DNA of 64,000 nucleotides from a virus (taxonomy: Duplodnaviria > Heunggongvirae > Uroviricota > Caudoviricetes), in the IMG/VR virus record IMGVR_UViG_3300037424_001372, positions 204,837-268,836 of that record; one strand, 5' to 3'. The notes beneath the pieces were generated by a model, which saw only the letters and a program-made list of their open reading frames with translations, searched no databases and had not been told where the DNA came from. Made by a program: the position numbers and the translations under genes. Each line of letters opens with the position of its first letter. Position 1 is the first letter of the stretch. This document shows, one piece after another, positions 160 through 64,000 of the stretch.

Positions 160-1377
160 ATGCAATTAGTAGAACAACATATAATCAATCATAATTCAAA
201 ATTTTATTCTGAATGTGATTCACTGTGTTTTAAATCTAAAAATTTATATAATAGTTCATTATATTTAATCAAACAAGAATACATTAAAAATAAAATTAAT
301 ATTGTTAATAATTTACATTATTTAGTTAAAAATTCTGAACAATATAAAGAATTGCCGGCTAAAGTATCATCATCGGTATTATTGTCAGTTCAACAAAATT
401 TTAAGAGTTTTTTTAAATCCTTAGAATCATATAATAAAAACAATAATAAATTTAAGGGAAGACCACATTTACCTAAATATTTAGATAAAACAGATGGAAG
501 GTTTATAGTTTCGTATACCAATCAAGCAATATCTAAAAAAATATTTAAAAAATATAATAAAATTAGATTATCTAAAACAAATATTGAATTCAAAACCAAA
601 CTCACTGATTTTAGTGATATTAATTGTGTTAGGATAATCCCTAATTTAGGTTACTTTACAATAGAAGTTGTTTATACCATACCTGACACAAAATTAAAAG
701 ACGATAATAATAAATATATGTCAATTGATTTAGGTGTTAATAATTTGGCAACATTAACAACCAATGTAAAAGGTATTGATCCTGATATTATCAACGGTAA
801 ACCGTTAAAATCAATGAATCAATATTATAATAAAAAGAAATCTCATATTAAATCAATATTAGAAACAAGAAATAAAGCAAAGAAAAGTAAAAAAATAAAA
901 AAATTAGAGCAAAAAAGAAAACAAAAGGTAAATAATTATTTGCATAAATCAAGTAAAATAATAATAAACAAACTATTGGAGAACAATATTAACACTTTGA
1001 TTGTTGGAAATAACAAGGAATGGAAACAAGATGTTAATATTGGGGCAAAGAACAATCAAAACTTTGTATCTATACCACACAGTAGATTTATATTTATGTT
1101 GAAATATAAGTGCGAAAGAAGTGGTATTAACTTTATAACTACAGAGGAAAGCTATACAAGTAAATGTAGTTTTCTGGATCAAGAACCGATAAAAAAACAT
1201 TGTAATTATTTAGGTAAACGAGTAAGCAGAGGTATGTTTCGATCATTAAAAGGATATAATATACATGCTGACGTTAATGGTAGTTATAATATATTAAGAA
1301 AAGCAATTCCTAATGCGTTTTCAGAAGGAATAGAGGGATTAGGAGTAATCCCAAAGATCATAAAAATCTTAAAGTAG
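160..1377 (+). CDS. tnpB: TnpB/OrfB transposon-associated RuvC-like nuclease, A-type copy 1
   Basis: 405-aa ORF about 55% identical to the 44169..45437 copy. It has the RuvC-III-like ADVNGSYNILRKA tail and sits directly downstream of a TnpA fragment. Cysteine pairs for the usual Zn ribbon are absent. Confidence 0.85.
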   Translation: MQLVEQHIINHNSKFYSECDSLCFKSKNLYNSSLYLIKQEYIKNKINIVNNLHYLVKNSEQYKELPAKVSSSVLLSVQQNFKSFFKSLESYNKNNNKFKGRPHLPKYLDKTDGRFIVSYTNQAISKKIFKKYNKIRLSKTNIEFKTKLTDFSDINCVRIIPNLGYFTIEVVYTIPDTKLKDDNNKYMSIDLGVNNLATLTTNVKGIDPDIINGKPLKSMNQYYNKKKSHIKSILETRNKAKKSKKIKKLEQKRKQKVNNYLHKSSKIIINKLLENNINTLIVGNNKEWKQDVNIGAKNNQNFVSIPHSRFIFMLKYKCERSGINFITTEESYTSKCSFLDQEPIKKHCNYLGKRVSRGMFRSLKGYNIHADVNGSYNILRKAIPNAFSEGIEGLGVIPKIIKILK

Positions 1378-2978: not shown

Positions 2979-3782
2979 ATGAAAAAAACGATATTAGATT
3001 TTTTAAAAAAAAATAATCATTGGGCTATTGCCTCATTGATTATAGTTATTCTAGTGGGAGGATTAGTATTAAACATACAAAAAAATAGAATAAATAATTT
3101 AAAATATGATTATAATGTTGAAGTTAAATTAAAAAATGCTTTAATTGATAGTGTGTATTATTATTATAATAAAAAAAATCAGTTGGTTGGTGAAAAATTG
3201 ACTTTACAGACAACAATTGATAATCTTAATAATATGTATGATAAACTATCTAATAATCAGAAAGAATTAATTAATTCGATTAAAGAAATTAATAAAAATA
3301 ATATTGTGATTGCAGCAGCTATTATTGAAACTAGAATAAAGGTCGATTCCATTTTACATGGTAAAAATGAGGGCGATTATACTAATATCGATACTGTCAA
3401 GAAAGTAATTTCATTTATTAACCCCAATGGTAAATATTTCCAATATAGTTTTAAAGTTAATAATGTATTACCTGCTTATAAAAATATCATACCATCTTTA
3501 ATAATAGACTCACTGAAATTTTCGAATAAACAATTAATTGATTTTCATTGGAAAGACGATAAAAAAGAAGGTTATCCGATATCATTCAGTGTAACTAATG
3601 ATAATCCATATTTTCAAACGATTAATATTGATAGCTATGCTATTCCAGAATTGGATAAACAAGAATTAAGACCAACATTTGGACAAAAAGTTGGAAAATT
3701 CTTTAAAGAAGGTGGTGGTAATATTGGATATTTTGGAATAGGTACTGCAGTAGGTGTTGGTGCTATTTTATTACTTAAATAA
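2979..3782 (+). CDS. membrane protein (N-terminal TM, Gly-rich C-terminal TM)
   Basis: Hydrophobic stretches HWAIASLIIVILVGGLVL and GYFGIGTAVGVGAILLL. Confidence 0.5.
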   Translation: MKKTILDFLKKNNHWAIASLIIVILVGGLVLNIQKNRINNLKYDYNVEVKLKNALIDSVYYYYNKKNQLVGEKLTLQTTIDNLNNMYDKLSNNQKELINSIKEINKNNIVIAAAIIETRIKVDSILHGKNEGDYTNIDTVKKVISFINPNGKYFQYSFKVNNVLPAYKNIIPSLIIDSLKFSNKQLIDFHWKDDKKEGYPISFSVTNDNPYFQTINIDSYAIPELDKQELRPTFGQKVGKFFKEGGGNIGYFGIGTAVGVGAILLLK

Positions 3783-3868
3783 TTTTTATGTTAAATTATA
3801 AAATAGCGTATTATTTTTTAATTCACTATTTTTGTACCCATATTTTTTTTTAAGTTATTCAAGTATTT

Positions 3869-4096
3869 ATGAATAACCTAGAACATAAAATGGAAGAACA
3901 AAATATTAGAAAAATTGTTAAAGATGAGATAAATAAATTTGTTAATGATTCATTGGATAAGGAAATTAAAAAGTTATTAGCAAAATCAGGCACTTTAACA
4001 AGAGACGAAAATATTACAATAATTAAAAATGCTTTAGATGCAGTATATAAAGTATTATGGACAAAAAAAGAGTTTTGGAAGTCTGATATTAAATAA
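3869..4096 (+). CDS. hypothetical protein
   Basis: 75-aa ORF. Confidence 0.4.
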   Translation: MNNLEHKMEEQNIRKIVKDEINKFVNDSLDKEIKKLLAKSGTLTRDENITIIKNALDAVYKVLWTKKEFWKSDIK

Positions 4097-4208
4097 TTTA
4101 TTGTGAATAAAAATGAATATGATATTATTTTATTAAATCATAATACTAATTTAAAATCATTGTGTTTATATAATAATAGACATATTAAGCGTAATAATAT
4201 TAATTAAC

Positions 4209-6662
4209 ATGGCAGATTTAAAACCAACATTAAGCAAACCAATGAGTACTCAATCAAAAAATTATGAAACTAATTTTAAGGCCACTATGAGTAAAAACAA
4301 TATTCATTTACATGAAAGTAATGATTTTTTAATTGAAATTGATAATAAATTAGATAATGACAAATTTTCCATTAAAAAGAAAATATTTTCATTACCTAAA
4401 ATGGAAAGTTTGGTTTTTTCAGACCCATTATTATCTACAAAATATAATGAAATGAGTGAAGAAGGTTCAAATCGTTGGGGGTATCATTATAATGAAACTG
4501 TGATGAACATATTATTTAATGATTATGTTTTGAATAGTCCTAAATATTTGCAAAAATATAAACAAGCAATCCCAAAAGAAAAAAAGAGAAGAGATAAATC
4601 GGGTATTAATCAGTTAAAAAAAGCTGGTGAAGAAAAAATGAATGTACCGACTAAATCTGTTCAAGAAAAATTTGATGTTGATGAATCTACAACGGCAAGT
4701 AGTGCTGGTGGTGCTGCTGGATATGTTGGTTATGCAGGTCCATCTGCGTGGTCGAAGAAAGGTGAACTTAGTGGTGATTTTAAAAAGAAAAAAGAAACTC
4801 CTATTGCAAATATTTCAACAATTTCTGAAAGTCAATATTTAATAGACCCAAGTGGTTTTGAAAAATATATTCAATCTTTAAATGAGGCAGATACTAGTGT
4901 TATTAGAAATAAAATTCAAGAACAGAATGATGCTGATTATATTCAAAAAAATAGTGAGGCATTTGGTAGTGAGGCCAATAATATGAATCAAAGTAATAAA
5001 GATATTATTGTTAAAGATTTAAAAACAGGTGTGCTTGATAGAGGTAATAATATTAAAGAAACTGATAAAACAAATACTCCATTATACGAAAGATTTGAAT
5101 CAAAAAAACAACAAAGATATTTTTATTATAAAGCAAACGATAATTCATTACCTGCTGAAGAAAGAGCTAAATGGAAAAAAATGGCTCAAGAATTTTCAGA
5201 TAAAACTAATTTCAATAAACTTCCTGAAAAGGTTGATGAGGGTAATAATAGAATAAATCCAAAATATACTCATTTTGCTATATATAAACCAAATGGTAAG
5301 ATAATTAATGGTTGGGAATATGCTGGTTATGACTCAGAAGAACTTAAAATGGAGAAAAAACATTATTTCTTTAATGATATTGTTGATATGGATTTTAACC
5401 CTAAAGACGTTAATATTTTAACAACAAAATCATTGCAGAAACGTGGTATTAATCCATTTGATAATAATAATTGGTATGTTGAAAGATTTAATCCTAAAGA
5501 ACAAATAAATAATATTAAAGAAGATAGTCAAACTATGATAAAAGATAATGGTAGTTCAATGGCGAATAAACAACAGCCAATTGGTGATTTAGGTAGTAAT
5601 GCATCAATGGGTATGCAAAGTAGTGGTGGTATGAATGAAGTAGAATCTTTGTTTGAAACACTTAATAATGAATTAGAGGCATTTGCTATTCACCAAAATA
5701 AATTAAAGGTTATTGCTGAAGATAGAAAACCATCTGCTTTGGTTCTTCGTGATAGGCTTGGTGCCGAAAATGAAAAAAATTTCAAGAGCGATATGAAAAA
5801 TAGTGATACTCAAGAAATTATTAATATTGAAAAAGAATTACAATATAAAGACCAACAAACAAATGTTGGTAACAAACCCGATAAACTAGGTATTGATATA
5901 GAGAAAAAAGCTATTAAAACAGGTGATATGAATGGTGAGGAATCATTTAAAAATGTTGGTGATAGTACTAATGATAAAGGTAATGAAATACCTAAACGTA
6001 ATTTAACTTCAGATGAACAAGAGGAAGTTAATATGTATCGTAATGGTATGCATAGTTTGGTTTATGATAACGAACCTAGTGAACGTTTTGAAGATAGAAT
6101 GAAAGCCGATATGGGTGATAATGTTTATGATATTAGACAAAAACAAATGGATTTCAAAGCTAAAGCACCTATGTATAATAAAGATACACAACCAACTGAA
6201 AATGGGATTGATAAAAGTCAATTTGATAAAAATGAATCTGGTTGGAACAAAAGAGAAGGACTTAAAGAATCTTTAATAACTGGTAGATATTTTAATAATT
6301 TAGGAAAAAGACGTTTAGTTGAATTTAAAGTAAGTGAAGTCGAAAATATTGAAAAAATTGACGAATCTAAATTCAGTAAAATTAATTTTGATGGTTTAGG
6401 TAATTCTTATTATAGTAAAACAATTGACAATAAAGTGGTTATTAATGAAAGTGTTGTAAATGCATTGAAAAATAATGAATATTATACTGATGGTAATAAA
6501 ATTGTTGCAACGAAAAAAACTACACTAAAATTAAATGAAAATACTCAATCAATTGAAAAACCAGTAATGAACGAACAAATAAATAAAATGAAACATTTAT
6601 TAGGTTATAAACCAGAATCATATGTGAGTACTAATAATGTTAAAAACAATAGGGGATTTTAA
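4209..6662 (+). CDS. large low-complexity K/N/E/D-rich hypothetical protein (possible virion-associated protein)
   Basis: 817-aa uninterrupted ORF. Gly/Ala-rich patch SSAGGAAGYVGYAGPSAW. Confidence 0.6.
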   Translation: MADLKPTLSKPMSTQSKNYETNFKATMSKNNIHLHESNDFLIEIDNKLDNDKFSIKKKIFSLPKMESLVFSDPLLSTKYNEMSEEGSNRWGYHYNETVMNILFNDYVLNSPKYLQKYKQAIPKEKKRRDKSGINQLKKAGEEKMNVPTKSVQEKFDVDESTTASSAGGAAGYVGYAGPSAWSKKGELSGDFKKKKETPIANISTISESQYLIDPSGFEKYIQSLNEADTSVIRNKIQEQNDADYIQKNSEAFGSEANNMNQSNKDIIVKDLKTGVLDRGNNIKETDKTNTPLYERFESKKQQRYFYYKANDNSLPAEERAKWKKMAQEFSDKTNFNKLPEKVDEGNNRINPKYTHFAIYKPNGKIINGWEYAGYDSEELKMEKKHYFFNDIVDMDFNPKDVNILTTKSLQKRGINPFDNNNWYVERFNPKEQINNIKEDSQTMIKDNGSSMANKQQPIGDLGSNASMGMQSSGGMNEVESLFETLNNELEAFAIHQNKLKVIAEDRKPSALVLRDRLGAENEKNFKSDMKNSDTQEIINIEKELQYKDQQTNVGNKPDKLGIDIEKKAIKTGDMNGEESFKNVGDSTNDKGNEIPKRNLTSDEQEEVNMYRNGMHSLVYDNEPSERFEDRMKADMGDNVYDIRQKQMDFKAKAPMYNKDTQPTENGIDKSQFDKNESGWNKREGLKESLITGRYFNNLGKRRLVEFKVSEVENIEKIDESKFSKINFDGLGNSYYSKTIDNKVVINESVVNALKNNEYYTDGNKIVATKKTTLKLNENTQSIEKPVMNEQINKMKHLLGYKPESYVSTNNVKNNRGF

Positions 6663-13744: not shown

Positions 13745-14272
13745 TTATGGCAATTTTATACCATATTTTTCGGAAAAATATAGTAATGCCTCAACATTAC
13801 CTTTACAATCATCAATCGGGTGATGCGAATGATTAGTTATGCGATGTTTTTTCCATTTATACCATAAATCTTTTTCTGCACCACAGAATAAATCACCAAT
13901 TCGTCTTGATGACCAACCAAATGGATTATGATTAGTAAATTTATGAAAATAATAATTTAAACATACTCCGAAATCATATCCATTATTATCAGAAATACCA
14001 ATTGGTGAGTTACCGCTATTAATTTTCAACCACTCTGTGAAATTCTCCATCACTTCTTTAGGGTCATCAAATTTTTCGTGTTCTTCTCTACTAAATCCAC
14101 TGATAGCGAGCGCATTTGAATTCCAATTATTTGATATTGGTTTCATTTTACCATAAAATATTTTAGAAATTGTTGGTTCTACAATAATTGCTGAAAAACA
14201 AACAATCGAATAATCCGGCATATAAGGTCCATCAGATTCAACATCGACACAAACTAATTTACTTTTTGACAT
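13745..14272 (-). CDS. DEDDh 3'-5' exonuclease (DnaQ/RNase T-like)
   Basis: Exo I VDVESDG. Exo III HHPIDDCKGN. Confidence 0.65.
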   Translation of the reverse strand: MSKSKLVCVDVESDGPYMPDYSIVCFSAIIVEPTISKIFYGKMKPISNNWNSNALAISGFSREEHEKFDDPKEVMENFTEWLKINSGNSPIGISDNNGYDFGVCLNYYFHKFTNHNPFGWSSRRIGDLFCGAEKDLWYKWKKHRITNHSHHPIDDCKGNVEALLYFSEKYGIKLP

Positions 14273-14273
14273 T

Positions 14274-14819
14274 TTATTGAATATTTAATTTATTATAAAT
14301 TTTAGTACAATATTTTATTTGTAATTTAGCATCATTAATTGGATGATGAATCAATGTGTTATTATTAGCAATTTCATCATATTTTATTTGAGGGGCAAAT
14401 GCAACTAATGTCCTTACATCTCTTTCTTTTGTATAATTCCAAGGTATTTTTAATTTACATGCGATATAAGCATCACTAAGAATACCAATATCAAAACGAG
14501 AACCATTGCCCCATATTTGAATATCTTGAATACTATCATTCATCCATAGACTAAATTCGTGTAAAACATTTTGAATTTCATCGTTGTTCTTATCGCATAT
14601 TGCATCACGAGCATCTTGACTTTGTTGCAACCACCAATAAACAGTACTCGCATCAATTTTCAAACCAAAATCCAAACAAGATTTTAAATTAACTACACGA
14701 TAAAACTCACGACCCGTTTCACCTGTTTCAATATTAAATTCAACAGCACCAATAGAAACAATGGCAGAATTGCTTGTACTTCCCATCGTTTCAAGGTCCA
14801 ACATTACATCTGTAAACAT
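14274..14819 (-). CDS. DEDDh 3'-5' exonuclease (DnaQ/RNase T-like), tandem paralog
   Basis: Exo I LDLETMG. Exo II WGNGSRFDIGIL. Exo III HHPINDA. Confidence 0.7.
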   Translation of the reverse strand: MFTDVMLDLETMGSTSNSAIVSIGAVEFNIETGETGREFYRVVNLKSCLDFGLKIDASTVYWWLQQSQDARDAICDKNNDEIQNVLHEFSLWMNDSIQDIQIWGNGSRFDIGILSDAYIACKLKIPWNYTKERDVRTLVAFAPQIKYDEIANNNTLIHHPINDAKLQIKYCTKIYNKLNIQ

Positions 14820-14831
14820 ATATTATTTTTT

Positions 14832-15371
14832 TTAATAATTATGAATTTCATCAAGCTCTGCCCAAAATTCATTTAATTGTTGCAAATTTAATGAATCTTC
14901 ATACCATTTCAAAGCCATTTTAAAAATAGGTCGCTTGTATTCATATTCTGTGATATATTTTTCATACATAGAACTGCGTGAATCTCTGCTATATGAGGCG
15001 TTTGCTGCAATATCACACATTTTCACAACTATTGAACGATAATCACTAATTGTTTTAGGCATCGTTAACATTTGTCGCATTAATCTGTTTTCGGCAGGTA
15101 CATCAGTAACATTTAATGTAATGCGAGCAACATCTTCATTGGTTTCACATTTAATATCGTTGAATGTTAATTTAGCATCCTCTATCAAATCATGAGTCAA
15201 ACAAGCCATGCTAGAATTTAAATAATCATGGGGATATTTAAAGATTTTACAATATCTTCCCATGTAATTTTTAACCATATCAATATGGGTGAAATAATTT
15301 TTTCCATCATATTTACAATTAGCATCATCATATGCTTTTTGTGCAAAATCATATACATTATCAATATTCAT
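14832..15371 (-). CDS. HD-domain phosphohydrolase (YfbR-like 5'-deoxynucleotidase / dNTPase candidate)
   Basis: H...HD...D pattern: YFTHID then ACLTHDLIED. Confidence 0.5.
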   Translation of the reverse strand: MNIDNVYDFAQKAYDDANCKYDGKNYFTHIDMVKNYMGRYCKIFKYPHDYLNSSMACLTHDLIEDAKLTFNDIKCETNEDVARITLNVTDVPAENRLMRQMLTMPKTISDYRSIVVKMCDIAANASYSRDSRSSMYEKYITEYEYKRPIFKMALKWYEDSLNLQQLNEFWAELDEIHNY

Positions 15372-15382
15372 AATAATTATTT

Positions 15383-15928
15383 TTAATTGTTATAACAAAT
15401 TAGTTTAGCATTTTCTTTACTATATATTTTAATATCAATAAATTTACCGCTCCATAGTTTATTATTGTCATATAGATTTGCATCACCTTTGGTTTGTAAG
15501 AAATCTATTGTATTACGATACCTCTTATTTTTTGTATCGTGAGCGATCCACCAGCCATTAATTTTTTTATTTGAACTTTCAATCCAAATACTATCACCAT
15601 ATTTTATTTTACCTTTGAATAAATTTGACGATTTATCAGATAACAAACTATAACGATATTCACAATCTAACATATCTTGACTAATCGCAATCCAACGGAG
15701 TTCACTGGCAATATCTGGATTAATGATAGAACCATCGCCGGTAATATTTGGCGTGCTGTCACATTGAGCAATTTCTGCGTGATAAATAGTGCCCCAAATA
15801 TTAGAATATAATGGTTGTATTTTAAATACTGTCGTTGACAAACCATTTCTTTCAAAAATATTTATACTTGTTAATATAGAATACAAAATACTGATGAGGA
15901 TTAACATATAATAACGATATAATTTCAT
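15383..15928 (-). CDS. 3D-domain (MltA/YuiC-like) peptidoglycan-binding or lytic protein with N-terminal signal anchor
   Basis: N-terminal TM. TPNITGDGSIINPDIASELRWIAISQD and C-terminal GWWIAHDTKNKRYRNTIDFL resemble the 3D-domain conserved Asp pattern. Confidence 0.45.
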   Translation of the reverse strand: MKLYRYYMLILISILYSILTSINIFERNGLSTTVFKIQPLYSNIWGTIYHAEIAQCDSTPNITGDGSIINPDIASELRWIAISQDMLDCEYRYSLLSDKSSNLFKGKIKYGDSIWIESSNKKINGWWIAHDTKNKRYRNTIDFLQTKGDANLYDNNKLWSGKFIDIKIYSKENAKLICYNN

Positions 15929-29418: not shown

Positions 29419-29596
29419 AAAAAACAATTATTTTAATGTTTATGACTGCGATTTTAGCAGTTTCTTGTACTCGAATTGATGCTGGTTATGAAGGATGGAA
29501 CAGATAAAGGCGTACAAGATGCTACTATGGTAACTGGTAGAGTTTGGTACAACCGTTCAAAAAATCCTACTAAATCTTACCAGATTCAATATTGAT
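29415..29596 (+). pseudogene. SPFH/band-7 lipoprotein gene, 5' fragment interrupted by IS element B1
   Basis: MKKTIILMFMTAILAVSCTRIDAGYEGWNR* then, after a frameshift, DGTDKGVQDATMVTGRVWYN..., ending exactly at the IS boundary. Confidence 0.4.
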
Positions 29597-30925
29597 TTTA
29601 TTTCCTAATTCAACGAGTGTGTAATCACTACTCTCCAAAGGCGTTAATTCCCCACAACGGATGGGTACTAATTTCTTTATCATACAATAATCATCTACTT
29701 TTATTTCAGATTTATTATATAATTTTAATCCTTCATTTCTAATATTAATCGCTGCATTTAAATCTCTATCATGGACTTCTCCACAATCAGGACATGTCCA
29801 TATTCTATCTTTAAGACTAAGATTATCATTTTTATATCCACAACAATTACATAATTTACTGCTTGGAAACCATCTATCAATTTGAACTAAATCTCTTCCA
29901 TACCAAATACTTTTATATTTTAACATGGTTTTGAATTTATTTAAACTTAGTTCCTGAATACTTTTAGCTAAATTATGATTTTTCATCATTCCCCTTACAT
30001 TTAAGTTTTCCATTACCATAACTTGATTTTCGTTAAGTAATTGATTAGAAACATTATGTAGATAATTCTCTTTAATGTTGTTTAATTTTTCATGAAATAA
30101 AGCTAACTTAATTCTACACTTTTCTTTGTTTTTACTTCCAATAACTTTTCTTGACAATGATTTATTTAATCCTCTTATTTTTTTCTTATTATTTCTTTTA
30201 ATCTTAATATTTTCAAATATTTCACCTTCTGATGTTATTACAAAATCTTTAACACCTAAATCAATTCCTATAATATTATCTGTTTCAGGCAATATTTTAT
30301 CAATTGGTAAATCAATAAGAATTGATAGAAAATATTTATCTGATTTAGTTTTAGTTAAAGTACCTGACTTAATATTATCTTTAAACGTAGATAAATAATT
30401 ATGATATTTATTAGAACATTTAAACTTAACTTTCTTTAAATCAGAAGTTAATGTTATTTTATAATCAGAATATATATTTTTCTTTGATATTGCATCTAAA
30501 GGAAATCTACAACTTTGATTATTATCATGTTTTGACTTAAATTTAGGAAACCCATTTCTGTCAACAAAAAAACGTTTATAACTATCAAGTAAATTAATAA
30601 CACTTTGTTTCAATACCTTAGTATTGTGTTCTTGCAACCATTTATAATCGGGATTTTTGGTCAATTCTTGATGAAAGAAGTTACCTAATTCTTTCAAGCC
30701 TAAATTAACCTTATCATTTGCATAACTTTTCATTTTTTTATCAAGGCATTGATTATAAACAAAACGATAACTTCCAAGAAGTTTAGAAATATAATCTTCT
30801 TGAGTTTTGTTTGGATACAATCTTATTTTTACTGCCTTAATCATTGAATTAATTATTTTCTTCTGATTTCTTTTTCTTATTTTGATGACTTCTTCTTCCG
30901 TATAATTTACTACTAAAACTTGCAA
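29570..30925 (-). CDS. tnpB: TnpB/OrfB RuvC-like nuclease with Zn ribbon, B-type copy 1
   Basis: CNCCGYKND...CPDCGEVHDRDLNAAINIRNEGL. About 60% identical to 35292..36512. Confidence 0.9.
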   Translation of the reverse strand: MQVLVVNYTEEEVIKIRKRNQKKIINSMIKAVKIRLYPNKTQEDYISKLLGSYRFVYNQCLDKKMKSYANDKVNLGLKELGNFFHQELTKNPDYKWLQEHNTKVLKQSVINLLDSYKRFFVDRNGFPKFKSKHDNNQSCRFPLDAISKKNIYSDYKITLTSDLKKVKFKCSNKYHNYLSTFKDNIKSGTLTKTKSDKYFLSILIDLPIDKILPETDNIIGIDLGVKDFVITSEGEIFENIKIKRNNKKKIRGLNKSLSRKVIGSKNKEKCRIKLALFHEKLNNIKENYLHNVSNQLLNENQVMVMENLNVRGMMKNHNLAKSIQELSLNKFKTMLKYKSIWYGRDLVQIDRWFPSSKLCNCCGYKNDNLSLKDRIWTCPDCGEVHDRDLNAAINIRNEGLKLYNKSEIKVDDYCMIKKLVPIRCGELTPLESSDYTLVELGNKINIESGKI

Positions 30926-31463
30926 TTAATGTCATCATATCGTTAACAAATTCATCACTATCAGAAATATTATTGTTTTCAATTCGTTCAATTTCAACCC
31001 CATAACTATTGAAAAAAGCATTAATTAGGTTATACTGAAATCTTGTTAATCTATCTTTATTTTCAATAACAACTTTAAATATTTTTTTATCGATAACTAA
31101 TTTAATTAAATTAACAAATCCACTTCTTGTATCAGATAAACCACTACCAGTATCTTTTATCTGATAATGAACACTATATTTCTTTTTAGCACAGTATTCG
31201 CTTAAACGTTGTGATTGTCTATCTAAATCACCCTTTTGTTTTTGATCATATGAACTAACACGAGAATATGTTGCAACGGCATCAATAATAATTTCTTTTT
31301 TATATTCTCCAATATAATTCAAAATATCTTCTTCTCGATAACGTCTATGACCACCAATTGTTTTAATTGATTTTAGTTTATCTTCTACATCCCAATTTCG
31401 TAGTGAATGTTTAGACACTCCAAGTATTTCAGATGCCTTATTTAATGATATTAGTTTACTCAT
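30849..31463 (-). CDS. tnpA: IS607-family serine recombinase TnpA (MerR-like HTH plus resolvase catalytic domain)
   Basis: N-terminal HTH (ASEILGVSKHSLRNW), resolvase core (YSRVSSYDQ...DRQ) and 77-nt overlap with tnpB. Confidence 0.85.
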   Translation of the reverse strand: MSKLISLNKASEILGVSKHSLRNWDVEDKLKSIKTIGGHRRYREEDILNYIGEYKKEIIIDAVATYSRVSSYDQKQKGDLDRQSQRLSEYCAKKKYSVHYQIKDTGSGLSDTRSGFVNLIKLVIDKKIFKVVIENKDRLTRFQYNLINAFFNSYGVEIERIENNNISDSDEFVNDMMTLIASFSSKLYGRRSHQNKKKKSEENN

Positions 31464-35291: not shown

Positions 35292-36512
35292 TTAAATCCT
35301 ATTTTCTTTTCTTCCTATTTCACCGACACTTGTCTCCATAGGCGTTAATTCCCCGATACTATCAGGTATTTTATTGTTTATTATTCTTAAACCTTCATTC
35401 TTGATATTTATTGCTGCATTATAATCCCTATCTATTGACATATCACATTTAGGACATTTAAATGTCCTTTCACTCAGTGTCAAATCATTGTTCTTATAAC
35501 CACAACAACTACACAATTTACTGGAAGGATAAAACCTGTCTATTTCCACCAAATCCCTACCATACCAAATTGATTTATATGTCAATATATTCTTAAACCT
35601 ATTTAGTGATAGTTCCTGTATTGATCTGGCTAGTTTATGATTTTTCAACATACCTTTTACATTCAAATCCTCAATCACTATAACTTGGTTTTCGTTAAGC
35701 AATTGATTTGATATGGAATGTAAATAATTCTCTTTTTTATTATTTAATTTCTCATGATATTTAGCTAATTTTATTCTTGCCTTGTTCTTATTATTTGATT
35801 TATTTTGTTTTCTTGATAATGATCTTTGTAATTTACTTAATTTCTTCTGGTTATTCCTTTTAATTTTGATATTCTCAAATACTTTATTATCGGAAGTCAC
35901 AATAAATTCTTTAATGCCCAAATCTAAACCAACAACATTGTTGGTTAATGGTAGGATTTTAGCTATTGAATCTGGTAGATCGATTAAAATCGATAAGTAA
36001 TAATAACCAGATTTAGATTTAGTTAATGTTGCTGATTTAATATTATCTTTATATTCTGACAGATAATTAACATATTTCTTTGATGTTTTGAATTTAATAT
36101 CTTTAATTTGAGTGGTCAACGTTAATTTATTATCTATGAATATATTTTTCTTTGATATTGCTTGTAAAGGGAACCTACACGATTGTTTATTATCATGCTT
36201 AGATTTATATTTGGGAAAGCCATTGCCGTTAACAAAAAATCTTTTGTATGTATCGAGGACATTAATAATTGTTTGGTTCAGGACTTTGGTATTGTGTTCG
36301 TTAAGGAACGAATATTCATCATTTTTCAATAGGCCGTGGAAAAGAAAGTTACCAAGAATTTTGAGGTTAGCGGATTTTTTTGTACATTTGTAATGTTCTA
36401 TTGAAAAATTAAGTGCTTGGTTATACGTAAATCTATATGAACCAAGGAGTTTATTCATATAAATTTCTTGATTTTTATTAGGGTATAATTTAAGTTTTAA
36501 ACCTTTAAGCAT
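35292..36512 (-). CDS. tnpB: TnpB/OrfB RuvC-like nuclease with Zn ribbon, B-type copy 2 (solo, no tnpA)
   Basis: CSCCGYKNN...CPKCDMSIDRDYNAAINIKNEGL. No recombinase gene adjacent. Confidence 0.85.
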   Translation of the reverse strand: MLKGLKLKLYPNKNQEIYMNKLLGSYRFTYNQALNFSIEHYKCTKKSANLKILGNFLFHGLLKNDEYSFLNEHNTKVLNQTIINVLDTYKRFFVNGNGFPKYKSKHDNKQSCRFPLQAISKKNIFIDNKLTLTTQIKDIKFKTSKKYVNYLSEYKDNIKSATLTKSKSGYYYLSILIDLPDSIAKILPLTNNVVGLDLGIKEFIVTSDNKVFENIKIKRNNQKKLSKLQRSLSRKQNKSNNKNKARIKLAKYHEKLNNKKENYLHSISNQLLNENQVIVIEDLNVKGMLKNHKLARSIQELSLNRFKNILTYKSIWYGRDLVEIDRFYPSSKLCSCCGYKNNDLTLSERTFKCPKCDMSIDRDYNAAINIKNEGLRIINNKIPDSIGELTPMETSVGEIGRKENRI

Positions 36513-44168: not shown

Positions 44169-45437
44169 TTAGTTTACGATTTTAATAATCGATGGGATTA
44201 CTGATAATCCCTCTATCCCATCTGTGAAAACATTTGGGACTGCTTTTCTTAATATATTATAACTTCCGTTCACATCGGCATTAATTACCTTATCTTCTCC
44301 CTTAATCTTATATAATCCCCTACATTTACGGTAGTCAGAGAACGAAGGTTCTTCGTTTATCTTTCCGTAAATAGGGATGTTATCCATATTAAGAAATGAT
44401 GCTTTAGAGGTATAACTTTCCTCCTGAAGTATAATATTTATTCCAGCTTTTTCGCATTTATAAACAAGCATGTTTATAAATCTACTATGTGGAATGTTAA
44501 CGAAGTTCTGATTTGAGTTTTTACTCATATCTGTGGATTGTTTCCAACCATCGTTCTTACCGATTATCATGGTGTTTGTTTGTCTTTCTTTTGCAATATC
44601 TATAACCAACTTACTTGCTTTATGCAAATAATCATCAACCTTGCGGTTGCGTTTATTCGTCATTCTGCGAGTTCGATTGCTATGTTTCTCTTTATTTCTT
44701 TTTTCTAATATAGAATTATAATGTGCAATTTTTTTATTATAAAACTGATTCATGGATTTTAATGGTCTACCATTAATAATCATAGATTTAATTTCATTAA
44801 CATTGCTAGTTATTGTTGCTAAATTATTCACGCCTAAATCTAAACTCAAATAACGATTATTGTTTTGTAATTTAGATACGTCAGGTATTTGATAAACAAT
44901 CTCTATAACATAGTGATCTAATCGTGGAACGATTCTGACAATAAGTATATTTTCTTTTTTAGTTGTTAATTGTATATTAGTTTTAGATAATGCTAAAATA
45001 CCTTTTTTAAGAAATTTTTTAGAAATGGCACCTTTTTCATAAATGACAATGAATCTACCATCTTTTTTATCTAAATAAGAAGGTAATTTAGGAATGCCTT
45101 TATATTTAGCCGGATTTTTCTTATAATCTCTAATAGAAGCGAAAAACGATTTCCAATTTCTATCCAAAACCATTAAGGTTTGGTTTGAAACCTTAAGTGG
45201 AAGTTGATACATATCGAATTGTTTATCATCTACAAGAAGCCTATTAATATCATTATAATTAAGATAATTAGCAAAGGAACGAGTTCCTTCTTGTTTTTCT
45301 TTTGATGTTTGAATAAATTCTTGTCTAATAATATGATTGGCGTAATTATATAGATTTTTAGATTTAAAACACACGCTATCACATTCAGCGTACAATGCTG
45401 AATTTTTATTGATGATATGTTTTTCTACTAATCTCAT
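44169..45437 (-). CDS. tnpB: TnpB/OrfB RuvC-like nuclease, A-type copy 2
   Basis: 422 aa, homologous to 160..1377, with ADVNGSYNILRKA tail and no Zn-ribbon cysteines. Confidence 0.85.
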   Translation of the reverse strand: MRLVEKHIINKNSALYAECDSVCFKSKNLYNYANHIIRQEFIQTSKEKQEGTRSFANYLNYNDINRLLVDDKQFDMYQLPLKVSNQTLMVLDRNWKSFFASIRDYKKNPAKYKGIPKLPSYLDKKDGRFIVIYEKGAISKKFLKKGILALSKTNIQLTTKKENILIVRIVPRLDHYVIEIVYQIPDVSKLQNNNRYLSLDLGVNNLATITSNVNEIKSMIINGRPLKSMNQFYNKKIAHYNSILEKRNKEKHSNRTRRMTNKRNRKVDDYLHKASKLVIDIAKERQTNTMIIGKNDGWKQSTDMSKNSNQNFVNIPHSRFINMLVYKCEKAGINIILQEESYTSKASFLNMDNIPIYGKINEEPSFSDYRKCRGLYKIKGEDKVINADVNGSYNILRKAVPNVFTDGIEGLSVIPSIIKIVN

Positions 45438-50494: not shown

Positions 50495-51409
50495 TTAATT
50501 AATACGATTACATAAAATACTAACTATGTTTTTATTCTCCCAATATGGAATTTTTAGTAAAGTAATCTCGTGCAATTTACAATATTTATTCTTAATATTA
50601 TCACATTTTTTCTGTGTTTTTAATATGTTTTCATTTGATATGCCTTTTAATACCTTATAATGATATTCACCTTGATATTCGATACACATATTAATATCGG
50701 GCAAATAAAAATCAAAACGTAGATTTTTAATGTTTTTACAATCATTAAACGAATGCTCATAAATGTAATTAATATTGTTATTCTCTAAATAACACTTAAT
50801 AGCATATTCACCTTTAGACATCTTACAATTAGGACATGGAGCATTTCGTTGATTTCGATAATGAACAGATTTTTCCCATTCATGACCACAAGTATTACAA
50901 AGCCACCAAAATTTTTTAGTTGTGTTCGATTGAATGTTTTCAGGACGTATAGGATAATTTCTATCGTAATTCCATTGTTTTGCAATATCTGGATTAATTA
51001 TTAGTGAATTATTGGCTTCATTAACCTTTCTTCCTGAACAATGTGGACAATCAAATAAATTTTTATTAGTAGTATTCCAAGACCTATCAAAAGTATAATT
51101 ACATAATAAACATTGCCATTTTAAATTACCTATCGAATTTTTATATATGTTACTAACTAATTGATACGATTTATTGTTCAATTTACACCAAAGTTTTATA
51201 TTATCAATGGTGTGTGAATTATTTTGACTAAAATAAATTGGCTTAGTGCTTCTAAGAATATTATTTATTCGAGTATTAATATGATATCCGTCAGAATTAG
51301 AAATGGTTATTTTTCCTTCATTGCCAATTGATTCAATACTAATCAAATTATAGCCCAACTGATTAACAACTTCAATAATCTTTTCCTTAGTATATTTATA
51401 TTGTTTCAT
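50495..51409 (-). CDS. tandem treble-clef Zn-ribbon protein with C-terminal DUF559/Vsr-like PD-(D/E)xK nuclease domain
   Basis: Repeated W.C..C...W....R.....CP.C units (WQCLLCNYTF...CPHC; WWLCNTCGHEW...CPNC). C-terminal FDFYLPD...CIEYQGEYH. Confidence 0.45.
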   Translation of the reverse strand: MKQYKYTKEKIIEVVNQLGYNLISIESIGNEGKITISNSDGYHINTRINNILRSTKPIYFSQNNSHTIDNIKLWCKLNNKSYQLVSNIYKNSIGNLKWQCLLCNYTFDRSWNTTNKNLFDCPHCSGRKVNEANNSLIINPDIAKQWNYDRNYPIRPENIQSNTTKKFWWLCNTCGHEWEKSVHYRNQRNAPCPNCKMSKGEYAIKCYLENNNINYIYEHSFNDCKNIKNLRFDFYLPDINMCIEYQGEYHYKVLKGISNENILKTQKKCDNIKNKYCKLHEITLLKIPYWENKNIVSILCNRIN

Positions 51410-51808: not shown

Positions 51809-52978
51809 CTATACATTTTCATTTGAAAATCCAAATCCTTTATCTGAATAAACTGGTAATACATCAGATATGTCACAATATTCACCAAATTCTTCATAAC
51901 TTACATTAGCAACACTATCTCCAATTGTAACTGGAATTTTTTCAGGAACTTGATCTAGGCATGTTACTACCAAATGTTTGTTATTAAACAAGTCAGGATT
52001 GTCAAACCTATCACAATTAATAGCATATTTTAGCATATCCAAATCCATCATTGCTTTTCTGAATTCACCTTGAAATCCCAATACATTGGTTTCTAAAGGA
52101 TTTTCTTTAATAAAAGATATATCCATACTTTCATTGCTCAAGAACCCATTACCATGACGAGTTTGATATGCTCTTGTGATGTAATATGTATTAATATTGG
52201 AAATAACACCTTTCAAATTATACTTATCAATGAGTTCGATAGCGTTTTTTGCTACGGTGTTACTTCGAGTAACGTGTGGAAAAAAACCATAATCTTTATC
52301 CAACATAATACCTTGACTACCCTCAAAAATAATGTTATTAAAACCCTTAACAACACTAAAATCATCAACAATTTGATATTTTTTCACCAAATCATCACAA
52401 GCAGTGATAAATTTATGATAAAGTTCATCAGTAATTTTATATTTTGCTTCAAATGGGTTTTTTGGATTGTATGCATGTTGATAATAACTGTTGATTATTA
52501 ATCTTAATTTTTCATTTCTAATTTTAGGATATAACAAATCTCTTGCAAACAAACGAAAATGGTCTTCGTTTCGTTGAATTGTAGTACCAAATCCTACACC
52601 AACACTACCATGTTTAGTAGTATCATCCAATATTCTATTTTTTAGAATATCAAATGGAGTGGTTATCATAGCATTTGAATTAATGAACAATTGAGGTTCA
52701 AAACCAGTAATCCTTAAAATATCGCCCTCACGTTGAATACCAACAGGGTCTAATGTGCAATATTCAGACCAATAAGTTGGAGCATTTTGAAGTGTTCCTG
52801 AACCAAAATTTGAAAATATGTGTCTAGTATCGTCAACAACAACAGTATGTCCGATTTGGTGACCACCACTGAATCTAACTACCAATGGATTGTCTCGTGT
52901 TGAACATAAATAATTGACAAATGAACCCTTACCCTCATCACCGTATAATGCACCGAGTATTATAAAAGCATTTCCCAT
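51809..52978 (-). CDS. adenylosuccinate synthetase (PurA)-family protein, short divergent form (PurZ-like candidate)
   Basis: GDEGKGS P-loop, GGHQIGHT and FEGSQG motifs. 389 aa. The Arg-rich TTGRRRR loop is replaced by GFQGEFRK. Confidence 0.7.
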   Translation of the reverse strand: MGNAFIILGALYGDEGKGSFVNYLCSTRDNPLVVRFSGGHQIGHTVVVDDTRHIFSNFGSGTLQNAPTYWSEYCTLDPVGIQREGDILRITGFEPQLFINSNAMITTPFDILKNRILDDTTKHGSVGVGFGTTIQRNEDHFRLFARDLLYPKIRNEKLRLIINSYYQHAYNPKNPFEAKYKITDELYHKFITACDDLVKKYQIVDDFSVVKGFNNIIFEGSQGIMLDKDYGFFPHVTRSNTVAKNAIELIDKYNLKGVISNINTYYITRAYQTRHGNGFLSNESMDISFIKENPLETNVLGFQGEFRKAMMDLDMLKYAINCDRFDNPDLFNNKHLVVTCLDQVPEKIPVTIGDSVANVSYEEFGEYCDISDVLPVYSDKGFGFSNENV

Positions 52979-62189: not shown

Positions 62190-62218
62190 AAAAAAAGAGG
62201 TTGCTAACCTCTTTTTAA
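62190..62218 (-). terminator. rho-independent terminator
   Basis: AAAAAGAGGTT-gct-AACCTCTTTTT immediately 3' of the exon-2 stop. Confidence 0.6.
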
Positions 62219-62223
62219 TCTTT

Positions 62224-62590
62224 CTAGTCTTTCACACGTTCCATTTGTTTGGATAGTGGATTGAAACGTCTTTGAATGCCTACGTAGTAAATACCTTTAG
62301 GAATTACAGAACTCCTATGGTCACGCATGGGCAATTCTAGTGGCTTTCTCCAAGCATCATCGGTTAATAAATTCTTGTCTGTGTGATTTAAAACACAATC
62401 TTCATGTACGTCAATAACAAAACCATCGTCATAAGAATACATGTCATAGTTACCTGATAAGGCATGAACGTTTCCGGTTTTTTCAGATGCAGCAATAAAC
62501 TGTTTATCGGCTTTTACTGCGTTTGAAGGGATTGTATCAATGGTAAACCACTGCGTGTCCAATAAGTCAATATTAACCGTCACATTAATA
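62224..62590 (-). CDS. 3' exon of an intron-interrupted gene (product unidentified)
   Basis: Frame opens just after the predicted intron 3' end and continues to the stop at 62224. The annotated first codon is GTG, not ATG. Confidence 0.5.
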
Positions 62591-63870
62591 TCCGTTTATA
62601 AAAAACTGCTGATTATCACTAATCAGATAAGACTATATCTTCAACCTAATATTTTTATAGGCAGCTCCCCATTTCCACTACCATTAAATGACTTGTAGTG
62701 TACACCCCATCACAGGTTAGTCGTTGAACCTTCACCCAATATGTTAAATTGGCTATTTAATTTTGTAAATAGAGAATCGACTGTTTACGATTCAAGTTTG
62801 GCTGCTGATTGACTAATACCGTGGTTTATAGTATTAGTGTTTCCAGCAATTAAAGGAGTTTTTCGATATGTGTTACCACATAAAGGGGCAATCATTTACC
62901 CTGATGTCCGATTTGATTTAAAATTTTCATAATTTTCATAATTTAAAGTTAATTTATTTCTTTTATCTCCTTCATTATATTTACAAATAATATTGTTTTC
63001 AATATAATAATTTTGTATTTTAATTTTAATTTTTTGGTATTCATTATATTTACGCTCTAAATAAACATTAGAATTTTGATAAATAATATCAAGAATTAGT
63101 TTACTTATTTGTTGCGGGAATCTTATTGCATTATTTACTGAATCATCATTATTTCTTATTTCATAATATTGGGGTATTAATAAATAATCTAAATATTTTA
63201 AAAATTCATTATATGTGTTATAATTAAAACACATGATTAAATTAGATGTATTAATATGTCCATCACCATCAATATAACCTCTCCAAAAATCCTTATGTAA
63301 ATCATATGGTATTTTACTTAAATCAGCAAATTGACCACAATATGTTTTATTGGAAATTATATTTAATTCATTTAGTTGTTCTTTTATGGATTTACTACTA
63401 AATCTTAATAAACATGTTTTATTATATTTTCCTTTTCTTAGACGTTTTCTGAATTTTATTTCAGTATCCACACCAATAAATTCTTTAAATTTATTTAAAT
63501 GTGAGACATCTTTTATTGATAATTCTAATAATATTTCATTCTTTACAATAGAACCATCTGCCATGAAAAAACCAATCCAATATGCTTTAAACTCAGTATC
63601 AATTATTTTGAAAATATCTGAAATAAAACCTGTTTTTATTTTGCTTTTATATTCAGGATATTTTTTATTAATTATCCCACTTAAAGAACTACCTTTTTTT
63701 CTTAATGTTTTACCACTAATTAATGGAGAAATATTTAATTTATCAATTATTTGAGAATATGACATTCCCTCGTCTCTTAAACGGAGAATGTCATATAAAT
63801 AAGATTCTATATTAGATGTCTTAAACATTTGACAAAATTAATAAAATTCTTTTAATAATCCAATCAATTA
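62591..63870 (-). ncRNA. group I self-splicing intron (boundaries approximate) carrying a LAGLIDADG homing endonuclease ORF
   Basis: On the minus strand, in order: P-like AATTGCTGGAAA, Q-like AATCAGCAGC, R GGTTCAACGACTAA and S AAGATATAGTC (P7 GACTA/TAGTC), then a P9 hairpin CTGATTA-gtga-TAATCAG. Confidence 0.7.
62896..63828 (-). CDS. LAGLIDADG homing endonuclease (two-motif, monomeric type), intron-encoded
   Basis: Motifs WIGFFMADGSI and WRGYIDGDGHI. Confidence 0.8.
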   Translation of the reverse strand: MFKTSNIESYLYDILRLRDEGMSYSQIIDKLNISPLISGKTLRKKGSSLSGIINKKYPEYKSKIKTGFISDIFKIIDTEFKAYWIGFFMADGSIVKNEILLELSIKDVSHLNKFKEFIGVDTEIKFRKRLRKGKYNKTCLLRFSSKSIKEQLNELNIISNKTYCGQFADLSKIPYDLHKDFWRGYIDGDGHINTSNLIMCFNYNTYNEFLKYLDYLLIPQYYEIRNNDDSVNNAIRFPQQISKLILDIIYQNSNVYLERKYNEYQKIKIKIQNYYIENNIICKYNEGDKRNKLTLNYENYENFKSNRTSG

Positions 63871-64000
63871 TTGAAAGAATTAAAATCATATTTCAATTCT
63901 ATTGGTATTGATTGTGGACGATGGAATTTGCACGCTTCAATAGCATCTTTGAAATGTGCTGATGTAGCGATTAAATATTTACTTCCTGTAGAAGGACAGG
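63848..64000 (-). CDS. 5' exon fragment of the intron-interrupted gene (continues beyond the window)
   Basis: Minus-strand frame ...PSTGSKYLIATSAHFKDAIEACKFHRPQSIPIELKYDF is open to the window edge. The exact 5' splice site was not determined. Confidence 0.35.

Follow-up and report, generated by a model that had tools for sequence, protein, structure and literature searches.

The window analysed here is a stretch of 64,000 nucleotides (positions 204,837 to 268,836 of IMG/VR record IMGVR_UViG_3300037424_001372) that belongs to a 324.7-kb metagenomic contig of an uncultured jumbo phage. Near its end, on the minus strand, a gene for a 122-aa protein is almost certainly split by a group I intron (62897-62560) that carries no open reading frame (ORF), and a gene for a LAGLIDADG endonuclease stands outside the intron, free-standing, between the end of an upstream gene and exon 1. 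Endonuclease and intron may form a collaborative-homing pair, a proposal that we regard as evenly balanced; the favoured explanation as a whole, anatomy and collaborative homing taken jointly, is one that we hold to be moderately probable. A preliminary description of the window had recognised a group I intron and a LAGLIDADG gene, and both are present, but it had placed the ORF within the intron, where it does not lie. The main features of the locus are these:

62896 to 63828, minus strand: free-standing LAGLIDADG endonuclease gene, 310 aa (Pfam LAGLIDADG_3, phrog_4645)
62898 to 62930, minus strand: exon 1 of the split gene, MKILNQIGHQG, 33 nt (agrees with MKILxQxGHQG, the consensus with which uninterrupted homologues begin)
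62560 to 62897, minus strand: group I intron without an ORF, 338 nt (boundaries from allele comparison and covariation)
62609 to 62907, minus strand: stretch matched by Rfam Intron_gpI, P1 through P9, holding the P, Q, R and S elements
62570 to 62606, minus strand: 3' extension of the intron with P9.1 and P9.2 (compensatory changes across alleles)
62224 to 62559, minus strand: exon 2, DTQWF...ERVKD, of 111 codons and a TAG stop, 62226-62224 (homology begins exactly at DTQWF)

The intron and the gene it splits

The ribozyme core is real and far beyond chance. With the search restricted to 62200-64000, the covariance model RF00028 (Intron_gpI) matches the minus strand at 62609-62907 over its full length (model positions 1-253), scoring 86.4 bits (E-value 3.6e-22) against a gathering score of 50 bits; this is the search by which the preliminary description had proposed to check its intron, and it is positive. 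The conserved elements that the description had picked out are also confirmed: P (AATTGCTGGAA, 62851), Q (AATCAGCAG, 62810), R (TCAACGACTA, 62727) and S (AGATATAGTC, 62640), together with the P7 pairing GACTA/TAGTC (GACUA at 62722-62718 with UAGUC at 62635-62631) and a P9 hairpin at 62626-62609. The full set of helices comprises P1, P2, P3, P4, P5, P6, P7, P7.1, P7.2, P8, P9, P9.1 and P9.2. In P1 the exon sequence GGGU pairs with the guide GCCC (62889-62886), the splice-site U.G pair is U62898.G62889, and the 5' splice site falls directly after U62898. At the other end, P9.1 joins GUUU (62606-62603) to AAAC (62597-62594) and P9.2 joins AUAUUAA (62591-62585) to UUAAUAU (62576-62570); about 10 nt and an invariant G, the terminal omega-G at G62560, then lead into GAY-ACN-CAR-TGG of exon 2. 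No sense-strand ORF longer than 36 aa was found inside the intron (62897-62560), and a regular-expression scan of the 64-kb window found no second group I core.

These boundaries rest on comparison of alleles. Complete intron-bearing alleles of the same gene were aligned from the window and from four other contigs (L004, L008, L010 and L254); further alleles come from L255, which is a 3' fragment, and from L256, which is more divergent. From the five aligned alleles RNAalifold gives P1-P6, P7.1, P7.2, P8, P9, P9.1 and P9.2, with compensatory changes in 38 of 80 pairs. A hand-drawn structure that adds the P3/P7 pseudoknot and P10 has 94.6% of its cells paired and 40 of 80 pairs changed on both sides. 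None of 500 shuffles reached 40 of 80, and sliding the partners by 1-3 columns left 39-49% of cells paired. Covariation is seen in every variable helix. P7, for example, reads GACUA/UAGUC in the window, GACCA/UGGUC in L254 and GAUCA/UGAUC in L256, P9.1 follows the pattern GUUY/RAAC, and P9.2 takes the forms ATATTAA/TTAATAT (window), ATATGT/ACATAT (L004) and TAAGAG/CTCTTA (L008). The splice-site U.G pair of P1 is invariant in the five alleles; L256, which scores 71.4 bits with Intron_gpI, has CAGGGU/GGCUCUG. A G stands directly before GAY-ACN/GTN-CAR-TGG in 7 of 7 alleles. Exon 1 ends in CAGGGT in all six intron-bearing alleles whose exon 1 is known, as P1 requires, and four intronless alleles have CAGGGC, CAAGGT or CAAGGA at the same position. 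The comparison also moves the 3' end of the intron: the preliminary description had set its omega-G at about 62593, but 62593-62560 forms covarying hairpins, and the ATTAAT that it had drawn into a P10 pairing with the start of exon 2 belongs to the stem of one of them, the conserved P9.2.

P7.1 and P7.2 lie between P7 and the 3' strand of P3 and are 95-100% paired, with three compensatory pairs each. By these two helices the intron appears subgroup-IA-like under the established Michel-Westhof classification, in which subgroup IA is the class typical of phage introns. The likeness to the subgroup IA introns of phage T4 (td, nrdB, nrdD) extends to the P1-P9 core, the U.G pair, the omega-G and insertion at conserved codons. 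The window intron differs from those introns in its new host gene (the one for the 122-aa protein), in an insertion point only 11 codons into the gene, in having no internal ORF and in a three-hairpin extension of P6. This extension, in the P6 region at 62790-62700 (minus strand), amounts to an extra ~55 nt with the stems GAAUCG/CGAUUC, CUAUUUA/UAAAUAG and CCAAU/AUUGG, and the other four alleles are without it.

Exon 1 reads ATG AAA ATT TTA AAT CAA ATC GGA CAT CAG GGT (an alternative in-frame ATG lies 9 nt upstream, at 62939) and exon 2 opens with GAC ACG CAG TGG, so that the intron sits after codon 11, at the point where the gene is most strongly conserved (GHQG-DTQW). Joining 62898 to 62559 yields a 122-aa product that aligns without gaps, residues 1-122 to residues 1-122, with the uninterrupted homologue P0002 at 79% identity. 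The predicted ligation of CAGGGU to GACACG restores the invariant GHQG-DTQWF motif (predicted junction between ...CAUCAGGGU and GACACGCAG), and the intron is predicted to splice itself out with a guanosine cofactor. The preliminary description had instead opened exon 2 with the frame 62224..62590, upstream of the point at which homology begins. When its two frames were joined and searched, 184 of 184 matches covered the downstream part only; they are complete proteins of about 122 aa in which MKILxQxGHQG runs directly into DTQWF. Among 120 homologues listed, 109 are uninterrupted and six are gene calls for exon 2 only. In intron-bearing alleles other than the window's, such calls begin M-DTQWF, the M being supplied by an intron-final AUG or UUG. 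The public call at this locus (P0001) is a 119-aa protein with a GTG start and without the invariant HQG residues.

Pfam, PHROG and NCBIfam hold no family for the 122-aa protein, and a tblastn search of 50,697 phage records gave no match. Its invariant residues are H9-Q-G-D, H43, N69-H70 and D91-H92. Its AlphaFold model is all-beta and confident (pLDDT 87), with no significant structural neighbours except uncharacterised viral proteins.

The endonuclease gene

The 310-aa ORF encodes a LAGLIDADG protein, as had been proposed: the Pfam match to LAGLIDADG_3 (PF14528; 32.5 bits against a cut-off of 22.5, 1e-7) and the match to phrog_4645, "endonuclease" (1e-41), agree. Its two motifs, YWIGFFMADGS and FWRGYIDGDGH, both keep their acidic residues and are invariant in three homologues that are 47-57% identical overall. 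There is also a weak N-terminal match to a helix-turn-helix. The protein appears to be an intact two-motif, single-chain enzyme, and it is predicted to make site-specific double-strand cuts in a long target.

The gene lies outside the intron: its ORF precedes the splice site at 62898/62897, and exon 1 is hidden beneath the last part of the ORF. The 33 nt of exon 1, directly 5' of P1, coincide in a different frame with the last 11 codons of the endonuclease. The ORF's stop TAA (62898-62896) straddles the 5' splice junction, taking its U from the exon (U62898) and its two A residues from the intron (A62897, A62896); in spliced RNA this frame would end in UGA. At its other end the ORF begins 35 nt past the stop of the upstream gene. 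Two further features flank the locus:

63864 to 64000, minus strand: 3' end of a separate upstream gene (...CPSTGSKYLIATSAHFKDAIEACKFHRPQSIPIELKYDFNSFNN, then the stop TGA at 63866-63864; identified by homology to a 360-aa protein)
62192 to 62216, minus strand: intrinsic terminator after the split gene, GAGGTT-loop-AACCTC and then 8 T (read in the sequence; palindromic stem)

The preliminary description had the intron run from 62591 to 63870, about 1.28 kb, with the LAGLIDADG ORF in a 5' loop and a first exon extending to the edge of the window. Such an architecture does exist in a distant relative of the endonuclease (L308, below), and the annotation of Staphylococcus phages gives many relatives as intron-encoded. 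Here, however, the frame taken for the first exon stops naturally as the end of a separate gene: it closes with ...KYDFNSFNN, and its final 44 aa share 70% identity with the C-terminus (residues 317-360) of a 360-aa protein in L001 (which closes with ...KYDFSEFNN). L256 and L008 have an equivalent end of the upstream gene, and in L001, where the 122-aa gene is uninterrupted, 113 nt separate the two genes. There is no GGGU near 63870 for the guide GCCC to pair with, the true exon 1 lies at 62930-62898, the stretch 62593-62560 consists of covarying hairpins and not of coding sequence, and L008 has the intron without the ORF. The longer intron is therefore hardly credible. The description had itself named flanking ORFs of different protein families as a finding that would tell against it; such families are what was found, and this disposes of its exon assignment while leaving the intron itself unaffected.

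Exon 2 is followed by a clear terminator, and none was found to part the endonuclease gene from the split gene, so endonuclease gene, exon 1, intron and exon 2 are probably co-transcribed. A candidate shared promoter motif upstream of the host gene or the endonuclease (GTATATTTGT) showed no enrichment, the window having 20 matches where 17 would be expected, and matches to sigma-70-like promoters there were at chance level.

Proposed collaborative homing and its alternatives

The endonuclease has few relatives of at least 50% identity: a search among 5.8 billion proteins found only three, the window's own call included, and all three lie directly 5' of an intron-bearing exon 1. The other two, P0123 and P0122, occupy the same position in L004 and L256 and are 50-56% identical to the window enzyme. 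The three genes end differently. The L004 homologue (50% identical) shares the frame of exon 1 and continues for two intron codons before it stops, and that of L256 (56% identical) stops in an ATGA overlap with the host start codon. As a side observation, a spliced L004 messenger (3770-5345), translated from the endonuclease start codon, would encode an endonuclease-host fusion of about 427 aa, and the unspliced form a 318-aa endonuclease. In L008 the intron is present and the endonuclease absent, exon 1 following the upstream gene after only 40 nt. L254 is probably intron-only as well, with stops in all frames just upstream of exon 1. The intronless L001, L011, L012 and L013 have no such endonuclease adjoining the host gene. 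Three allele states are thus seen: neither element (L001, L011, L012 and L013), intron alone (L008) and both (the window, L004 and L256). By host protein, L010 and L254 are 72-73% identical to the window, L004 66% and L256 55%. Judged by these identities, the closeness of the host protein to L010 and L254 argues for gain, loss or transfer.

A free-standing endonuclease that adjoins a gene with an ORF-less intron, in an arrangement that is polymorphic among related genomes, is the pattern by which collaborative pairs are recognised, and the present locus shows it. In the proposed mechanism, the endonuclease would, during mixed infection, cut 122-aa genes that lack the intron, at the point of insertion or close to it and about 33 bp from the end of the endonuclease's own gene. 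The break would then be repaired by recombination with the donor, by which endonuclease gene, exon 1 and intron would be copied together. The donor would be protected from self-cleavage by the intron splitting the recognition sequence, and self-splicing would preserve the function of the host gene. The cleavage specificity assumed here is suggested circumstantially, by the finding that the close relatives all stand beside intron-bearing alleles.

The arrangement of an endonuclease beside an intron is already known from a few other phages. In cyanophage S-PM2, the psbA intron and the adjacent free-standing F-CphI constitute a case of collaborative homing, as the system is summarised in the literature (Zeng, Bonocora & Shub 2009; PMC6083498, PMC3984707). 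As at the present locus, related phages have intronless alleles. The two systems differ in that F-CphI has an Endo VII-type motif, whereas the window enzyme belongs to the LAGLIDADG family, and in that exon 1 at the present locus, 33 nt long, is abutted and overlapped by the endonuclease ORF. For F-CphI, experiments are reported to have shown both that the intronless allele is cut and that the intron protects, whereas here both are predicted. Collaborative (trans) homing has also been described for T7-like phages (PMC3984707, PMC6083498, PMC2790892). In T4, mobE mobilises the nrdB intron in trans, its resident I-TevIII being defunct (PMC2790892). The T4 case resembles ours in having a free-standing endonuclease beside an intron-containing gene, and there co-conversion is seen. 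MobE, however, belongs to the HNH enzymes, and a decayed endonuclease ORF persists in the nrdB intron of T4, whereas the window intron is without any ORF remnant. Staphylococcus phages 812, Romulus, Remus and their relatives encode an enzyme of the same family as the window's (27-28% identity over ~80% of the length, same PHROG), but their ORF is annotated inside an intron, in a recA-like recombinase gene, and the window ORF lies outside.

Several observations weigh against collaborative homing as the account of this locus. In the endonuclease-bearing alleles, endonuclease (47-57% identity), host protein (49-66%) and intron have diverged to a similar degree, and no recent co-conversion tract was found around the splice site, the peaks of identity there being conserved protein motifs of the endonuclease. 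Because of this similar divergence and the lack of a recent tract, the association could be old and partly a matter of vertical descent. The relation of the endonuclease stop to exon 1 differs from allele to allele (+1 frame in the window, in frame in L004, ATGA in L256), which means that no expression coupling has been conserved. The comparison draws on few alleles with known upstream context, three with the endonuclease and one clear plus one probable intron-only allele. P10, the pairing of the guide with the first bases of exon 2, extends over 4-5 bp in L004 and L010 and over 2 bp only in the window.

Alternatively, endonuclease and intron could be independent neighbours, the former an ordinary free-standing endonuclease engaged in intronless homing, with its target elsewhere (in the spacer, where the upstream gene ends, or at a position within the 122-aa gene that has nothing to do with the intron) and with a co-occurrence due to shared ancestry. 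Free-standing endonucleases are often found between conserved genes, one of which they cut (PMC6083498). The similarly old divergence and missing co-conversion signal would fit, and the intron-only alleles demonstrate that the intron persists without the endonuclease. Set against this is the concentration of the enzyme beside the intron: three of three close relatives are found there, compared with about 5% of host homologues (6 of the 120 listed) whose exon-2-only calls point to an intron. The endonuclease-bearing alleles are also not each other's closest relatives by host protein, which speaks against simple descent in a single lineage. On balance independence is rather unlikely. A different possibility is that the LAGLIDADG protein was recruited to another role, mainly that of a trans-acting maturase for the adjacent intron, or that it is in decay and no longer an active nuclease. 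LAGLIDADG maturases are known in bacteria, for example that of the Thermotoga 23S intron (PMC3984707), and the gene has been kept beside the intron in three diverged lineages; but the acidic residues of both motifs are retained, the intron of L008 survives without the protein, and the ribozyme core is complete, with strong predicted helices. We consider such a role improbable.

If the pair does home collaboratively, it would perhaps be the first such system driven by a LAGLIDADG enzyme, with three stages preserved in metagenomes of uncultured jumbo phages, a suggestion that we advance tentatively and at somewhat less than even confidence. In any case the locus is a LAGLIDADG case among the very few known pairs of a free-standing endonuclease and an ORF-less intron. 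Natural intermediates of this kind could be used to test how mobile introns assemble: with collaborative homing here, the three stages and the distant relatives of the enzyme inside introns would provide a natural series on which to test the proposed route, in which endonuclease and ORF-less intron, at first separate, meet at one site and are later joined in a mobile intron.

Distant relatives (27-36% identity) abound in phage metagenomes, with matches in at least 544 stretches of IMG/VR. When 80 of these loci were surveyed roughly for motifs, 25 had an S motif alone behind the ORF, in most cases ~100-135 nt further on, suggesting that the ORF lies inside the ribozyme core. L308 offers another arrangement (700-1960): a DnaE-like polymerase gene is split between ...RKSPPD and IDTDF... 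by a group I intron, in which a 292-aa LAGLIDADG ORF comes after the 5' splice site and ahead of the P3-P9 core. No group I intron was found near the 33%-identical endonuclease of L260. Separately, L175, L193 and L253 have near-identical intron 5' ends in unrelated genes (CAGGGT, then, past the splice site, ARA..TTGCCCC..TGCTGGAA); exon 1 of L193 and of L253 likewise closes with ...HQG, and the L253 intron has an ORF in the P6 region. One intron lineage seems to have colonised several sites containing CAGGGT. Short patterns proved uninformative. The R...S core pattern TCAACGACTA...GATATAGTCT and the junction pattern CAGGGTARA..TTGCCCC each matched at least 119-120 unrelated viral contigs, and a longer pattern found related introns in other genes only (those of L175, L193 and L253).

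Annotation of phage introns and other features of the window

At the gathering threshold, an Rfam scan of the whole 64-kb window returned nothing, and scans of multiple loci (L004, L008 and L256) were likewise empty: with default filters, cmscan on inputs of 6-64 kb missed introns that scored 71-86 bits when 1.8 kb or less was supplied. The missed introns are false negatives of the speed filters. AT-rich phage introns are probably under-called by whole-contig scans of this sort, and since introns of 71-86 bits were missed in long windows, phage introns as a class are probably under-counted. At this locus a spliced 122-aa protein replaces the 119-aa fragment, and similar exon-2-only calls occur in at least five other metagenomic contigs.

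A megablast search of the locus against the 50,697 phage records gave no nucleotide match, and a Dda-like helicase in the window is ~33% identical to its best cultured-phage matches, which are crAss-like phages. The IMG/VR viral contigs that carry homologous loci are 129-340 kb long.

Other mobile-element genes are present elsewhere in the window. An IS607-like unit (29570-31463, minus strand) consists of a serine recombinase (Resolvase plus MerR-type helix-turn-helix, 30849-31463) overlapping a TnpB/Cas12f1-like_TNB ORF (29570-30925), and three more TnpB-like ORFs (phrog_506) lie at 160-1377 (plus strand), 35292-36512 (minus strand) and 44169-45437 (minus strand). Four TnpB copies within 64 kb of a jumbo phage is a notable number; L001 also has a Cas12f1-like_TNB gene. 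At 50495-51409 and 51809-52978 (both minus strand), an ORF resembling HNH/treble-clef zinc-finger endonucleases (phrog_559, 9e-49; DUF4379) is found a short way downstream of a homologue of adenylosuccinate synthetase (PF00709, 1e-41; the PHROG label, "2-aminooxy adenylosuccinate synthetase", is PurZ-like). The synthetase may be PurZ (2-aminoadenine DNA) or PurA. The endonuclease-like ORF may be a second free-standing homing endonuclease. Four consecutive ORFs of ~175-181 aa (13745-15928, minus strand), one of which (14274-14819) has an Rv2179c-like 3'-5' exoribonuclease domain (2.6e-54), may be an array of tandem paralogues.

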